Below the pieces are notes generated by a model. It made no database searches. It had not been told where the DNA came from and saw only the letters and a program-made list of their open reading frames with translations. A stretch of 64,000 bases of DNA from Oligoflexia bacterium (GTDB taxonomy: Bacteria; Bdellovibrionota; UBA1018; CAIPTA01): NCBI GenBank assembly GCA_903867855.1, contig CAIPTA010000144.1:10284-74283 (forward strand), read 5' to 3'. The position numbers and the translations under genes were made by a program. Below, piece after piece: positions 26,391-31,377 of this stretch. The first letter of the stretch is position 1; the number at the start of each line of letters is the position of its first letter.

Positions 26391-27167
26391 ATGGAAAATA
26401 AATCTATGCGTGGTCCCGTCGCGATCCTATTCACTAGTTTTTTACTCACTGGTTGTTTTCAAACCCGTGCGGATATTCAACAAGAAAAAGAGCAACAGGC
26501 AATGGAAAGTTCCATGCAGCAGAGTGTTGCGGAACAATCGCAATCTCTGGAAGAACTACAGCAACATGTAGCGAAGTTACAGGGGCATATCGAAGAGCTT
26601 GAACACGGCCATAAGTCAGATGCGGGCGCCGAGCAGAAAAATCAGGAAGAGTTAAATAAAAAACTTGCCGCCATCACCGCACGATTGGATGCGATTGAGC
26701 AGAAACAAGAAGTGCTCTTCACAGAAGTAACGAAAGCCAAGCAAGAAGCTTTGCAAGCCCCAAAGTCTGCTCCAGCGGAACTTGCCCAAGGTGGAACTCC
26801 AAAACGAAAAGCCGCGGGCTTTGAGGCGGGCATCACCGCATTTCACGCTCATCAATATGCAGATGCAGCTGCAAATTTTAGTGCTTATTTGAAATCAGGA
26901 AAAAGCGTGAAGCATGCGCTTGATGCCAACTATTTTTTGGGCGAATCGCAGTATCAGCTGAAGCAATATTCTCAAGCTATTTTGGCCTATAATGCAGTTC
27001 ATGAAAAGGCGGGTAAGGCCTTGCTAGGTCGCAAGGCAACTCTGCGAATCGCGGAGTGCTTTTCGTTGATGGGAAATCACAAGGATGCGAAAGCTTTTGC
27101 CCAGCTTCTCTTGGATGCGAGCCCAGATAGTGCTGAAGCGAGAGCAGCACGGAAGTACTTGAAATGA
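26391..27167 (+). CDS. cpoB: Tol-Pal system protein YbgF/CpoB
   Basis: 258 aa. Signal peptide, Gln/Glu-rich coiled coil, C-terminal TPR-like repeats. Position directly after pal. Confidence 0.65.
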   Translation: MENKSMRGPVAILFTSFLLTGCFQTRADIQQEKEQQAMESSMQQSVAEQSQSLEELQQHVAKLQGHIEELEHGHKSDAGAEQKNQEELNKKLAAITARLDAIEQKQEVLFTEVTKAKQEALQAPKSAPAELAQGGTPKRKAAGFEAGITAFHAHQYADAAANFSAYLKSGKSVKHALDANYFLGESQYQLKQYSQAILAYNAVHEKAGKALLGRKATLRIAECFSLMGNHKDAKAFAQLLLDASPDSAEARAARKYLK

Positions 27168-28720
27168 AAAACCTGATTTTTACTGCGCTTGCGTTAGTGC
27201 TGGCATCGTGCACCTCGAGCAAGCAGTCTACGAAGTCTAATTCAGGAAGCATCTATATCATGTACAATAATGATAACTTTGCTTTCCTGGATCCTTGCGG
27301 CTGCCGCATCTCTCCGATCGGAGGAATTGATCGTAGATGGAATGCAATGCAAGGCTATGCAGAAGAGTCGCGCGTATTTGTTGATGGCGGGAATTTTCTA
27401 TTCAAGAGCCCGAGCGCGGCAGACTATCTCAAGCCACAATGGTTTGAGCAGGCCAAGGGCGTGGTGGAAGGATACAATCTTCTGCATGCAGATGCTGTTG
27501 CTATTGGAGAAAATGAGTTTGCGCTCGGTGTGAAAAAGTTTGAAGAGATCGCCGCTACGGCGAACTTCCCTTTCCTATCAGCCAATATTTATAAAAAGGG
27601 CACAGATACTCTGTTTGCCAAGGATTCCATTCTCCTCGAAAAGCGTGGAAAGAAAATTGGCGTTTTCGCTGTATTTTTGCCGAGCCTCAAGTTGCCTCCT
27701 GAATTAGAGGCGCGAGATATTAATGAGGCTGCTCGTGAGGAAGTGAAAAAACTTCGCGCTAGAGGAGCAGATTTAGTGATCGCTCTTGCGCACGAAGGCT
27801 ATGAGAATGATTTGAAGTTGGCTAAGGCTGTGCCCGGTATCGATCTGATTGTGGGCGCAAGCTCGCAAAGTTTGTTGCAAAATCCAACCTCGGAAGGGGA
27901 TACGCGAATTGTGCAGCTCTCTAGCCAAGGGCAGATGTTTGCCTACTTAGAGTATGGTCTCCAGGAATTTCCGAAAAAGCTTCTTAGCAATGTGGTGCTT
28001 GAGCTGAATGCGGATTTCAACCATTCGCCGAACGATGAAGCGAATCCGATGAAAAATTTGATTGCGGTTACCAACTTGCGCATTGGCCAGGCAAATCGCA
28101 AGCTCGATGAAAAAATTTGGGCCGAACATAAGGATGCTGTAGCTGGGTATGATACTTTCATTAGCTGCCGTGATTGCCATAGTAAGCAAGCAGAGTTTCA
28201 AGAAGGCAAGCCCCATGCGGCCTCATTCTTGGCATTGGTCGCTAAGAAGCAGGAAACTAACCTAGACTGTGTGAAGTGCCATAGCGTAGGCCTCGGTGTG
28301 CCAGGTGGATTCCAGTCGATGTCAGAAGCGCTTCGCGATGAGTCTGGGCAGGGTGTGGCGGTTGAATCTGTGATTGCGAAAATGGGCAAAGATTTTCCAC
28401 CTAAAGAAGAATATCGTGTGCTGTATCATAAGGATCCAAAACACTTACGTGCTGATGTGCAGCGCTGGATTGCCTCCTTGCAAAGTAGTGGGGTGAAGAA
28501 GGCCTTCCTCGGCATGCAGTGCGAGAATTGCCATGGTGGAATGTCTGGGCATCCATTTGCCAACGATAATAAGTCACCCACCGTAACTAGCGCAATTTGC
28601 CTGCAGTGCCACACCAAAGAGCAGGCTCCAGCTTGGTACGGTAGCGATGGAAAAGTAAACACAGCGGTAGTGGCAGCGGCGATTAAAGAAATGGGCTGTC
28701 CTCGCAATACGAAAGAGTAG
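27164..28720 (+). CDS. Lipoprotein fusing a degenerate calcineurin/5'-nucleotidase-like domain to a C-terminal tetra-haem cytochrome c domain
   Basis: 518 aa. Lipobox LASC. N-domain resembles UshA-type phosphoesterases but lacks the metal ligands (NNDNF, DGGNF, GENEF). Four CxxCH motifs: CRDCH, CVKCH, CENCH, CLQCH (28166-28612). Confidence 0.7.
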   Translation: MKNLIFTALALVLASCTSSKQSTKSNSGSIYIMYNNDNFAFLDPCGCRISPIGGIDRRWNAMQGYAEESRVFVDGGNFLFKSPSAADYLKPQWFEQAKGVVEGYNLLHADAVAIGENEFALGVKKFEEIAATANFPFLSANIYKKGTDTLFAKDSILLEKRGKKIGVFAVFLPSLKLPPELEARDINEAAREEVKKLRARGADLVIALAHEGYENDLKLAKAVPGIDLIVGASSQSLLQNPTSEGDTRIVQLSSQGQMFAYLEYGLQEFPKKLLSNVVLELNADFNHSPNDEANPMKNLIAVTNLRIGQANRKLDEKIWAEHKDAVAGYDTFISCRDCHSKQAEFQEGKPHAASFLALVAKKQETNLDCVKCHSVGLGVPGGFQSMSEALRDESGQGVAVESVIAKMGKDFPPKEEYRVLYHKDPKHLRADVQRWIASLQSSGVKKAFLGMQCENCHGGMSGHPFANDNKSPTVTSAICLQCHTKEQAPAWYGSDGKVNTAVVAAAIKEMGCPRNTKE

Positions 28721-29289: not shown

Positions 29290-29925
29290 TTAATTCCAGT
29301 TAACGGTGAATTCTGCGGCTGGGCCTTCGGCCTTCTCGATCTTGATGAAGCCCTTATTTAGGCCGTGCAGGAAAACATCTTTCGTTACTTCAACGTCTTT
29401 CAAGCAATACTCGATGATCTTTTTCACATCGCCTTGCTTCCACCATTCTACTGCCATGATACCATCCGCACTTTTGCCCACGCCGAGGGTGGCGGTGGCC
29501 ACTTTCTCTAGCTTCACAAATTTCCAGCCGCTCACATTATGGATATCGAGCATGATATCAAAGGTGTCGAGCTTTGAGTGGTGAGGGCAGCCGTACTTCT
29601 CGAGCACCGGCAAATCGAAGCCAATAATATTATAGCCAATCACGAGGCGCTCTTTGCAGAGCTTGATCATGTCGCCTAATTGATCTTCCGTATAGGAGTA
29701 GAATTTGCCATCGCGAGAATCGTAGGCGCAGGCCACCGATACTTCGAGAGCTTTAAAGTTTTTCCAGCCACCTACGGCATCCACTAGCGTTTTTGTTTCG
29801 ATATCCACTACGAGAAAATCTTTGTGATTTTGAAATAGAGAGGCAGGCGACAAGTCGCTGCCCAAAGGGATGCTAAGATCATGGCTCCAGAAGGAGGAAC
29901 TGAGTTTTACGCGATTTGTGCTCAT
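29290..29925 (-). CDS. Stand-alone DEDDy-type 3'-5' exonuclease (RNase H-like fold)
   Basis: 211 aa. ExoI VVDIET, ExoII GYNIIGFDLPVL, ExoIII YCLKD (Y-x3-D). Confidence 0.65.
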   Translation of the reverse strand: MSTNRVKLSSSFWSHDLSIPLGSDLSPASLFQNHKDFLVVDIETKTLVDAVGGWKNFKALEVSVACAYDSRDGKFYSYTEDQLGDMIKLCKERLVIGYNIIGFDLPVLEKYGCPHHSKLDTFDIMLDIHNVSGWKFVKLEKVATATLGVGKSADGIMAVEWWKQGDVKKIIEYCLKDVEVTKDVFLHGLNKGFIKIEKAEGPAAEFTVNWN

Positions 29926-30090
29926 AGGAATTGGATACCATAGTTCGAAAATCGCTTCAAAAGATTGCGCAGACTCTCTGTGTCTAAATGGAATATAAAT
30001 ATTTTATGTTTGTATCTACTTGGACAATGTTTAAAAATTCGCTGGAGATTCGTGCCTTTACCCCCGCATCCGGAACCCACAGATTTTTGC

Positions 30091-30119
30091 TTGACCAAAA
30101 CAATCAGGCTTGTTAGAGT
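30091..30119 (+). promoter_or_regulatory. Sigma70-like promoter for the riboswitch RNA
   Basis: TTGACC (30091-30096), 17-nt spacer, TAGAGT (30114-30119). T-rich stretch just upstream. Predicted TSS about 30126. Confidence 0.5.
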
Positions 30120-30160
30120 TGAAATATAGGGAATGGGAAACAAATTTTAAGTTAGGAAAT

Positions 30161-30252
30161 CCCAGCGAAAAGGGCAATCCGTAGCGAAAGCACGGGGCGC
30201 AAAGTTCTTATCCTACCCTCGAGAGAGAAGGGATGAAGAATTGCCGCAAGGG
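30161..30252 (+). promoter_or_regulatory. c-di-GMP class I (GEMM-I) riboswitch aptamer
   Basis: AAAAGGGCAAUCC-GUAGC-GAAA-GCAC-GGGGCGCAAAG-[hairpin 30205-30240]-UUGCC. This matches the conserved AGGGCAAACC ... GAAA ... GGGACGCAAAG ... UU(A/G)CC framework of the Vibrio cholerae Vc2 aptamer. Confidence 0.8.
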
Positions 30253-30551
30253 CGAGTGTTCCATACGTTCGGTCGAGAGCATCGGCGGCTCTGACTATGC
30301 TATGCTTGGGTTAACTATTGGCGGCGAGCTGATAGTTAGGACGTGTCGGGCCTCGAAGGAGAAACGAATGAAAACGGAGTGCTAGCGCAAGCTAGTGGTT
30401 CCGTTTACGAGAAACTTGTTTAAAAAAATTCAAATATCGATTGCATAGGATTTCGGCTCGGGACGGAGATGATAGAGTAAATATCTCTGCCGCGAGGTGA
30501 GCCTACACTATATGTGTTTGCAGCCTGCCGATTTTGATCGGCGGCGATGAA

Positions 30552-30584
30552 AGAGGTTGATTATGAATCAACCTCTTTTTTTTT
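30552..30584 (+). terminator. Rho-independent terminator of the riboswitch RNA (T-tract overlaps the convergent suhB stop codon)
   Basis: 11-bp perfect stem AGAGGTTGATT (30552-30562) / AATCAACCTCT (30566-30576), 3-nt loop, then a run of 8 further T (30577-30584; 9 consecutive T from 30576). Confidence 0.85.
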
Positions 30585-31377
30585 ATTTCAAAATTTCCAT
30601 CATGCGGGGATGAATAATCCCATTCGTCGCGAGCACTTCTCTGCCCATCAGATCTAATGGATCATTTCTATAGTTACTCACTTCGCCACCAGCTTCCGTG
30701 ACTAGTGCTGCTCCGGCACAAATATCCCAGCTACCTAAATTTTGTTCCCAAAAGCCATCGAATACACCTGCGGCTACGTAGGCAAGGTCGATTGCGGCAG
30801 CGCCGGGGCGTCTTACTGCGCGGGCCTCTAGGTGAGCATTGTGAAATTTCTCGATCGCAGGCGCTAGCATGCTCTCTTCTTGGCTGTAAGCAAAACCAGT
30901 GGTGAGCAAGCACTCAGAAATTTTCTTGCGATCACTCACGTGAATTTTCTTTTTCCCAAGAAAGGCGCCACTTCCCTTGGCTGCATGAAAAGTTTCCTTT
31001 AGACAAGGAATATGAATCACACCGAGCACTGGGTCCCCCGCGATCGCGAGACCGATAGAGACACAAAACATGGGAAAGCCGTGAACGAAATTTGTGGTGC
31101 CATCGAGTGGATCCACATGCCAAACGGGAGTATCGCCGTGAATGAGATCACTTTGGCCACTTTCTTCCCCAATGAAAACGAAGCTAGGAAACTTTTTCTG
31201 AAGAGCGGCTTTAATGAATTTTTCGCTCTTTAAGTCAGCTTGTGTAACAAGCCCTGCTTTAAACTTTTCTTTGATGATGAGTTTTTTACGATAGTAGCTT
31301 AGCAAAATTTTGCCTGCGCCTTCTGCTACTTTACAAACCTCGGCCTTAATTTTTACGAGCTCTGATTTCTTGAGCAT
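30583..31377 (-). CDS. suhB: Inositol monophosphatase family protein
   Basis: 264 aa. IMPase motifs WHVDPLDGTTNFVHG and GSWDICAGAALVTEAGG. Confidence 0.85.
   Translation of the reverse strand: MLKKSELVKIKAEVCKVAEGAGKILLSYYRKKLIIKEKFKAGLVTQADLKSEKFIKAALQKKFPSFVFIGEESGQSDLIHGDTPVWHVDPLDGTTNFVHGFPMFCVSIGLAIAGDPVLGVIHIPCLKETFHAAKGSGAFLGKKKIHVSDRKKISECLLTTGFAYSQEESMLAPAIEKFHNAHLEARAVRRPGAAAIDLAYVAAGVFDGFWEQNLGSWDICAGAALVTEAGGEVSNYRNDPLDLMGREVLATNGIIHPRMMEILK

Follow-up and report, generated by a model that had tools for sequence, protein, structure and literature searches.

The DNA analysed here, a window of 64,000 nucleotides (nt) from contig CAIPTA010000144.1 of an Oligoflexia bacterium in the phylum Bdellovibrionota, contains on its plus strand an aptamer for cyclic di-GMP (c-di-GMP) of class I (GEMM-I). 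The aptamer lies between two genes of the opposite strand, one divergent from it and encoding an RNase_H-superfamily protein, the other convergent with it and encoding an inositol monophosphatase (IMPase). This region (29926-30582, 657 nt) is the longest stretch of the window without an open reading frame (ORF) of at least 100 amino acids (aa), the runner-up being 271 nt long; the original prediction, made from the sequence alone, had likewise placed the aptamer in the largest intergenic gap. A c-di-GMP-I aptamer is ordinary in itself, and the interest of the present one comes from its lack of a gene to control. For such an arrangement there is one well-known precedent, merRNA of Bdellovibrio bacteriovorus, the function of which has not been established since 2013. 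The RNA described here is conserved over genomes with neighbouring proteins of only ~60-70% identity. Its structure covaries, its promoter and terminator are defined, natural “deletion mutants” of it exist and a related aptamer in a classical cis arrangement is available for contrast, and with these the role of a riboswitch that heads a noncoding RNA becomes approachable by comparison and biochemistry.

Results

The whole window was scanned with cmscan against Rfam 15, and the only match at the gathering threshold (GA) in the 64 kb was to RF01051 (c-di-GMP-I), at 30163-30248 on the plus strand, with 49.2 bits (GA 35; E 1.4e-6) and over model positions 1-87 of 87. A permissive search of both strands of 29900-30650 returned the RF01051 match again (E 1.6e-8), the remainder being subthreshold noise around the terminator; in this region RF01786 (c-di-GMP-II) gave no match even at E<=10, and no aptamer was detected on the minus strand. 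Both outcomes agree with the original prediction, which had assigned the element to class I on the plus strand, had proposed these two covariance models as a check and had noted that the minus strand lacks the motifs. We are virtually certain that 30163-30248 is a c-di-GMP class I aptamer.

The alignment to the RF01051 model places the parts of the fold where they had been expected (Table 1): a first hairpin with two G-C pairs and a GAAA-capped helix, a CAAAG junction at 30200-30204, and a second hairpin with CCUA at the position of the tetraloop receptor. One proposed contact was not supported, namely the pairing of C30244-C30245 with G30172-G30173, positions that are unpaired in the Rfam model. 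G30173 is the equivalent of G20 in the Vc2 aptamer of Vibrio cholerae, and the ligand contacts, in Vc2 numbering, are G20, the intercalating A47 and the 3' tail C; in the Vc2 structures, the equivalents of G30173 and of the tail C contact the ligand rather than each other. G30173, A30201 and C30244/45 align to conserved model positions and are invariant in 10/10 homologues.

Comparison of these ten distinct homologues supports the fold itself. When the Rfam-derived pairing is imposed on the alignment of the ten, standard pairs fill 89.4% of pair cells, as against 32-50% in slid controls, and 8 of the 18 aptamer pairs are altered on both sides, so that the fold is kept by compensatory changes. 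The G in the G20-equivalent column (A3 column 11), the GCAAA junction and the UUGCC tail are present in all ten. GEMM-Ib riboswitches, which respond to 3'3'-cyclic GMP-AMP (cGAMP) and are found in Geobacter, have the same overall GEMM-I fold, except that A replaces G at the G20-equivalent position. The window family lacks this specificity-switching A (G in 10/10), and the aptamer is therefore predicted to be selective for c-di-GMP and not for cGAMP.

The aptamer is followed by a conserved 3' domain and enclosed in a predicted transcription unit of ~460 nt (~30126 to ~30588). The promoter is σ70-like with an extended -10 element and a predicted transcription start site (TSS) at ~30126, and the geometry TTGAnn-N14-TGn-(-10) recurs with identical spacing in 16/18 homologous loci. 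The leader between TSS and aptamer is 8-58 nt long in the homologues and ends in AAA(A/U/G)CCC. At the other end, the intrinsic terminator was the best terminator-like site of the scan, and a GC-rich hairpin followed by a U-run lies 250-340 nt past the aptamer in nearly all homologues. In the window, this hairpin and U-run overlap the stop codon (30583-85) of the convergent IMPase gene, and the element, bordered by an A-run and a U-run, can be read as effectively bidirectional. The full-length RNA folds with z = -4.8 relative to shuffled sequences, and the aptamer helices are present in both the minimum free energy (MFE) and the centroid fold.

Within this unit, there is no protein gene of the kind that an aptamer would control in cis, a point on which the original prediction was silent. 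On the plus strand of 30249-30582, just two ORFs reach 30 aa, one of 50 and one of 36 aa, neither with a family: the 50-aa ORF (30233-30385) starts inside P2 and has no Pfam family, and the 36-aa ORF crosses the terminator. The terminator scan identified no terminator adjacent to the aptamer, nor is there a platform sequestering a Shine-Dalgarno (SD) sequence next to it. The lack of a credible ORF and of an adjacent platform, together with the convergent orientation of the next gene, thus sets the element apart from canonical cis-acting riboswitches. A hidden protein gene was also considered and rejected: on the RNA strand, ORFs that reach 20 aa vary in frame and length across homologues, and what BLASTP finds similar among them is the translated 3' strand of the aptamer, which is conserved. 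Moreover, the combination of non-triplet indels with compensatory changes in the stems indicates selection at the level of RNA. The unit is likely a stand-alone noncoding RNA without a cis-regulated protein gene.

An uncultured clade of Bdellovibrionota, represented by metagenome-assembled genomes (MAGs) and metagenomes, yielded about 15 distinct homologues of the RNA; the loci compared are referred to by L numbers. The neighbouring IMPase served as an anchor. Its closest match among the GTDB species representatives has 66% identity, and the matches come from MAGs of uncultured Bdellovibrionales, Oligoflexia and Bacteriovoracia; a metagenome scaffold from ENA (L081) encodes an identical IMPase protein in the same gene order. 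L004 and L005 have an RF01051 match in the same convergent position (49.9 and 50.8 bits), while three further IMPase relatives, L001-L003, have no copy of the RNA at this locus. In a large protein collection, ~100 IMPase relatives (55-71% identity) were found, and contigs were taken for eleven of them. A model of the aptamer, R1, found the element in L083-L089 and L091-L094; a second model, R2, describes the 3' core. A DNA pattern for metagenomes, CGCAAARNTCTNATCCTAC...GGATG...TTGCC, gave 0 matches and was too narrow, since most members carry CTCTCGTCCTA in P2. A second pattern yielded eight loci, L095-L102, among which L095 is a diverged full member of the family.

The 3' domain is a conserved, covarying structure. 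It begins with a junction conserved as GCCGnAAGGG / GCCGAAAGGGU across homologues, the GGG of which (30250-52) may pair with the CCC that ends the leader (30161-63) as a closing helix of P1 type; CCC and GGG are both invariant, so this helix is without covariation support. Hairpin H0, which follows, is conserved in position and variable in sequence, and both the MFE and the centroid fold contain its stem; as no U-run follows it, H0 is not an intrinsic terminator. The core then has a fixed order: GGGUUAG, hairpin H1, CUAGA, a segment containing UCGGGCC, AAGGAG, a spacer of 6-8 nt and AUG. The stretch from UCGGGCC to GAAGGAG is single stranded, and in the window GGGUUA lies at 30308-13, AAGGAG at 30356-61 and AUG at 30368-70. 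The H1 loop has the family consensus YGGNRAR. Among 16 sequences, H1 is 88.6% paired (slid controls 21-48%), with compensatory changes in 9/11 pairs and 46 cells. Hairpin H3 begins 1-2 nt past the AUG, and its closing stem covaries (GGUGC/GCACC, GGAGC/GCUCC, GGCGC/GCGCC and GAGAGC/GCUCUU in homologues; AAACGGA/UCCGUUU in the window). All members have an A-rich linker ahead of the terminator, even L096, in which the core is missing.

No Rfam family matches any part from the junction to the terminator (H0, core, H3, linker). Among 51 sources, R2 matches RNA-bearing loci only. In addition, a profile of the 3' domain built without L006 and L090, two loci without a recognizable aptamer, found both with nhmmer (E 2e-9 and 1e-7).

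The AAGGAG box and the AUG resemble a translation start, and most members have such an SD-like box and an AUG 6-8 nt apart. The ORFs that these AUGs open are MGA (three members), MSA, MSAG, ME, MKTEC (the window) and MGASLAA, each ending in a stop codon, while a few members have ORFs of 20-26 aa. The AUG is missing from this place in L087; in L091, 9 nt separate the box from the nearest AUG, which is out of the alignment register. No conserved peptide was found behind the SD-like box among the members.

There are natural variants of three kinds, the first two of which separate the modules of the RNA. First, L006 (4793-5366) and L090 (3793-4366) lack the P2 arm, and neither R1 nor Rfam finds an aptamer in them; they retain the promoter, the AAACCCGGCG motif, a single GAAA-capped hairpin, CGAAGGGGG, the whole 3' domain and the terminator, and they score 52-57 bits with R2. 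A replacement of GEMM-I by another aptamer was considered for these two loci and rejected, because a permissive Rfam search gave noise only and the remainder looks by eye like a P2-deleted remnant. Second, L096 (4700-5110) keeps the promoter, the aptamer, the A-rich linker and the terminator; H0, H1 and the SD segment are absent, and a GC-rich hairpin, GCGCGCGAGCGCG, lies directly 3' of the aptamer. Third, the aptamer of L098 (720-946, minus strand) is related but weaker (31 bits with R1); behind it come GAAGGAG-N7-AUG and an ORF of 38 aa, MKKETKKVEVKKVKLDLEILELEAKIAPKLTQSSGAEC and a stop codon, for a small lysine-rich peptide. This peptide is apparently under classical riboswitch control, judging from the layout, and provides a cis contrast to the window RNA. 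The retention of the 3' domain without the aptamer in L006 and L090 argues for a function of this domain that does not need the sensing of c-di-GMP, and the aptamer is best seen as a regulatory input.

The unit is also independent of its neighbours. The gene string Band_7, SpoIID, Aminotran_4 and IMPase is conserved, the IMPase gene of the window following class-IV aminotransferase and SpoIID genes, and the RNA adjoins the aminotransferase-IMPase pair in most genomes; the genes on its other side vary by locus. In L085 (3800-4420), the whole unit, from the promoter through aptamer and 3' core to the terminator, has been turned round with respect to the IMPase gene, such that the RNA points to the RNase_H-like gene and ends at its own terminator ~75 nt short of that gene. 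In L087 (3794-5620), an inserted gene for a Fic-domain protein (411 aa) separates the RNA from the IMPase gene; the RNA shares the strand of the Fic gene, precedes it and keeps its own terminator. The inversion, the insertion and the differing upstream genes all argue for this independence.

Table 1. Features of the RNA locus and its flanking genes, in positions of the window
Feature	Position	Strand	Details	Basis
RNase_H-superfamily protein gene	29290-29925	-	211 aa; divergent, upstream of the RNA	
Promoter (predicted)	30091-30119	+	-35 TTGACC 30091-96, 14 nt, TG 30111-12, 1 nt, -10 TAGAGT 30114-19	consensus scan
5' leader	30126-30162	+	UAGGG at 30127-31; ends AAAUCCC (CCC 30161-63)	alignments
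c-di-GMP-I aptamer	30163-30248	+		RF01051 match; covariation in homologues
G-C/C-G clamp	30174-75 with 30199-30200	+	2 base pairs (bp)	RF01051 model alignment
P1a helix	30179-30195	+	GAAA loop 30186-89	RF01051 model alignment
GCAAAG junction	30199-30204	+		RF01051 model alignment
P2	30203-30242	+	CCUA at tetraloop-receptor position 30212-15	RF01051 model alignment
UUGCC tail	30241-45	+		RF01051 model alignment
Junction and hairpin H0	30249-30302	+	H0 stem 30272-80 with 30288-95	alignments
Conserved 3' core	30303-30375	+		R2 match, 54.8 bits, E 3e-11
Hairpin H1	30311-39	+	7-nt loop CGGCGAG 30322-28	covariation
Mini-ORF	30368-30385	+	AUG AAA ACG GAG UGC UAG (MKTEC, stop); behind SD-like box, 6-nt spacing	
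Hairpin H3	30372-30406	+	AAACGGA 30372-78 with UCCGUUU 30400-06; inner GCUAGC-GCAA-GCUAGU	covariation
A-rich linker and variable hairpins	30407-30548	+	UUGUUUAAAAAAAUUCAAAU, A-run 30421-29; hairpin e.g. 30523-45	
Intrinsic terminator (predicted)	30549-30588	+	14-bp hairpin 30549-79 and U-run (9 U)	terminator scan
IMPase gene	30583-31377	-	convergent, downstream of the RNA	

Elsewhere in the window, no GGDEF motif was seen that would point to proteins related to c-di-GMP, and proteins flagged by a crude PilZ motif were rejected as unrelated housekeeping proteins. A 518-aa ORF at 27164-28720 has multiple CXXCH haem motifs (cytochrome c7/c554-like Pfam matches). Its place beside the RNase_H-like gene is conserved between the window, L081 and L085, and no connection with the riboswitch is visible.

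Discussion

Taken as a whole, the findings are probably best explained by an independently transcribed RNA of ~460 nt that has the aptamer as its 5' domain, acts in trans and responds to c-di-GMP. The RNA is a previously undescribed family in an uncultured Bdellovibrionota clade and, beyond the aptamer, is not in Rfam. We suggest that the RNA would be transcribed from its strong σ70-type extended -10 promoter to its own terminator, both ends being predicted. Binding of c-di-GMP would close the aptamer and the helix of P1 type between CCC and GGG, and the closed aptamer, in turn, would alter the fold, the stability or the partner binding of the 3' effector domain. Candidate partners at the surface formed by the SD-like box, the AUG and the H1 loop would be the 30S subunit or a protein. 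If abundant, as it probably is, the RNA would also buffer free c-di-GMP, as proposed for merRNA of Bdellovibrio.

Several points weigh against a c-di-GMP-responsive RNA acting in trans. The transcript ends, the abundance and the processing of the RNA are predictions, and we infer that c-di-GMP is bound and that the 3' domain has a partner. Forcing the aptamer to fold in silico produced no consistent change in the accessibility of the SD-like box and AUG across members, a result that neither supports nor refutes occlusion of the SD sequence by the ligand-bound aptamer, and the coupling between the two domains is hypothetical. The sole candidate for a switch pairing, between GCCG of the tail and CGGY of the H0 5' strand, is present in ~8/15 sequences; it competes with the outer stem of H0, UUCCGsC/GsCGGAA. 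Also, the variants L006/L090 and L096 show neither module to be indispensable, and the modules could have separate functions. Finally, the conserved SD-like box and AUG leave room for a translational role.

That the RNA works through a specific ligand-gated effector mechanism in trans is a tentative proposal, rather less likely than not. In its most explicit form, which we regard as possible but doubtful, the aptamer would gate an effector made up of a decoy ribosome-binding site (AAGGAG and AUG at the foot of H3) and the YGGNRAR loop, and this effector would titrate ribosomes or an RNA-binding protein in trans during the predatory life cycle; the RNA would then represent a second Bdellovibrionota family of orphan c-di-GMP riboswitch RNAs, without merRNA sequence beyond the aptamer. 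If this is true, the aptamer-less and the core-less variants are evolutionary dissections of two functions. A sponge for CsrA/RsmA of the CsrB/RsmY type was rejected as the effector, because the RNAs contain 7-12 GGA motifs each, which is the expectation from dinucleotide shuffling.

An alternative is that the RNA is purely a sponge or reservoir, which only binds and releases c-di-GMP and in which the 3' part serves stability and termination. This is the hypothesis put forward for merRNA (PMC3627812), and besides this precedent it would account for a strong-looking, conserved promoter (TTGAC -35, extended -10), for the highly structured nature of the RNA (its fold z-score) and for L096, in which the aptamer is kept and the H1/SD core is dropped. 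However, L006 and L090, having lost the P2 arm, retain promoter, 3' core and terminator, and hence the 3' domain is selected without c-di-GMP binding. Moreover, the conservation of the H1 loop YGGNRAR, of AAGGAG and of AUG exceeds the needs of a stabilizing tail. This argues that, in the window RNA family at any rate, a sponge alone does not suffice as a model, and we consider it unlikely.

A second alternative is a cis-acting riboswitch on the tiny ORF at 30368-85, where the act of translation would be the output, e.g., as ribosome loading that stabilizes the RNA or as a start-stop-like element. The SD-like box and the AUG at 6-8 nt are kept in most members, the AUG stands at the foot of the covarying H3, and the related aptamer of L098 precedes a normal SD sequence, AUG and 38-aa ORF, all of which would fit such a role. 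However, the ORFs mostly have 2-7 codons (20-26 in a few) and share neither a peptide nor a stop position, and the start is missing in L087 and displaced to 9 nt, out of register, in L091. Likewise, ~110 nt that include H0 and H1 separate the box from the aptamer upstream of it, its accessibility does not change consistently when the aptamer is forced to form, and L006 and L090 keep box and AUG without the aptamer. Control of the tiny ORF in cis is thus improbable as the function of the RNA.

Regulation of a neighbouring gene, either by c-di-GMP-dependent read-through into the IMPase gene as antisense or by control of the divergent RNase_H-like gene, would fit the overlap between the terminator and the IMPase stop codon and the position of the RNA beside the aminotransferase-IMPase pair in most genomes. 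It is very improbable given that the unit is inverted in L085 and, in L087, parted from the IMPase gene by the Fic gene, while having its own terminator in both loci, that the upstream genes differ between loci, that the IMPase relatives in L001-L003 do without the RNA, and that the terminator, with a 14-bp stem and a 9-U run, is strong. Lastly, that the aptamer is a decaying, now functionless relic left after loss of a regulated gene, as the missing downstream gene and the degenerate version in L006/L090 might suggest, is hardly credible, for the aptamer is kept with compensatory changes and invariant ligand-contact positions across genomes that share just 58-71% identity in the flanking IMPase, and promoter and terminator are conserved as well.

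The stand-alone RNA that we favour invites comparison with merRNA. In B. bacteriovorus HD100, merRNA is 445 nt long (1,073,741-1,074,185, minus strand), lies between Bd1131 (BCAT) and Bd1134 (mrp) and reaches ~2x10^6 RPKM (reads per kilobase per million mapped reads) in attack phase, a read coverage described as equal to that of all mRNAs together (PMC3627812). It has no conserved ORF, its authors found no conservation outside Bdellovibrio and they proposed that it is a c-di-GMP sponge (PMC3627812); in 2024 it was still termed a “predicted” riboswitch (PMC11323537). Both RNAs come from the same phylum, are ~450 nt long, combine a c-di-GMP-I aptamer with an intrinsic terminator and lack a conserved ORF. 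Neither has a FliA-type promoter, as merRNA is not flagged for FliA (PMC3627812 Table 2) and the promoters of the window family are σ70-like. Both have SD-like AAGGAG(G) boxes with an AUG ~6-7 nt on, and both are convergent to or near a gene for a class-IV aminotransferase.

The two RNAs differ in sequence and layout. The aptamer core of merRNA occupies nt 245-315 of 444 (PMC3627812 Fig. S1), after a long 5' domain, whereas the order is reversed in the window RNA, in which the aptamer lies at ~nt 38-123, ~37 nt from the predicted TSS and with ~300 nt beyond it. The two aptamers are 45% identical, essentially at universal GEMM-I positions. Outside the aptamer, no similarity to merRNA was detected, as the nhmmer profile of the 3' domain had no match (E<=10, --max) and the best that blastn-short returned was 15 nt inside the aptamer. 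The flanks differ as well (BCAT Bd1131 and mrp Bd1134 for merRNA; IMPase and RNase_H-like for the window RNA). Shared synteny through Mrp was rejected, because no Pfam family is assigned to the divergent ORFs of L004 and L005 and a P-loop protein resembling Mrp is not encoded in the window; apart from the nearby class-IV aminotransferase, nothing supports synteny with the locus of merRNA. Sharing neither sequence beyond the aptamer nor domain order nor precise synteny, the window RNA is not classed as a merRNA homologue and is merRNA-like in concept only.

The aptamer itself shares with Vc2, from tfoY of V. cholerae, and with canonical c-di-GMP-I aptamers the 2-bp clamp, the GNRA-capped P1a, GCAAAG, a CUA-type receptor in P2 and the UGCC tail. 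Canonical members lie in 5' untranslated regions with a terminator or an SD-sequestering platform; the window RNA, by contrast, has no adjacent platform and no gene. An aptamer at the 5' end of a noncoding RNA with an effector at the 3' end is found in the B12-riboswitch RNAs EutX of Enterococcus and Rli55 of Listeria and in the SAM (S-adenosylmethionine)-riboswitch RNAs SreA and SreB. The window RNA resembles all four in having a 5' aptamer, a 3' effector part and no downstream ORF. In EutX and Rli55, the ligand causes premature termination between aptamer and effector; the window RNA differs from them in having no terminator between the aptamer and the 3' core, and in its ligand class and effector. 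SreA and antisense riboswitches are among the examples cited in the merRNA study (PMC3627812). A preprint (bioRxiv 10.1101/617340) describes Vc2 as also controlling the stability of an upstream small RNA (sRNA), a noncanonical output that is conceptually related.

Some minor observations concern sequence composition. APsRNA5 is the second most abundant attack-phase sRNA of HD100 (PMC3627812); it starts with ..CUCGGGUUAGGUUCUGCGAAAGGAGCCUUGAAUGG.., and merRNA contains AUAAGGAGGUUCUUAGGGUUAU (PMC3627812 Fig. S1). An echo of GGGUUAG...AAGGAG...GAAUGG in APsRNA5 and merRNA, seen by eye, was not significant (no match with nhmmer; 11 nt with blastn, E 0.23). The window RNA is G-rich, with a GC skew of +0.24 to +0.26 across 30100-30550, and has conserved GGG tracts at 30308-30313, 30250-52, 30348-50 and 30129-31. 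Several homologues contain the telomere-like GGGUUAGGG, and a G-rich example from L086 reads CUAGGGUUAGGG.

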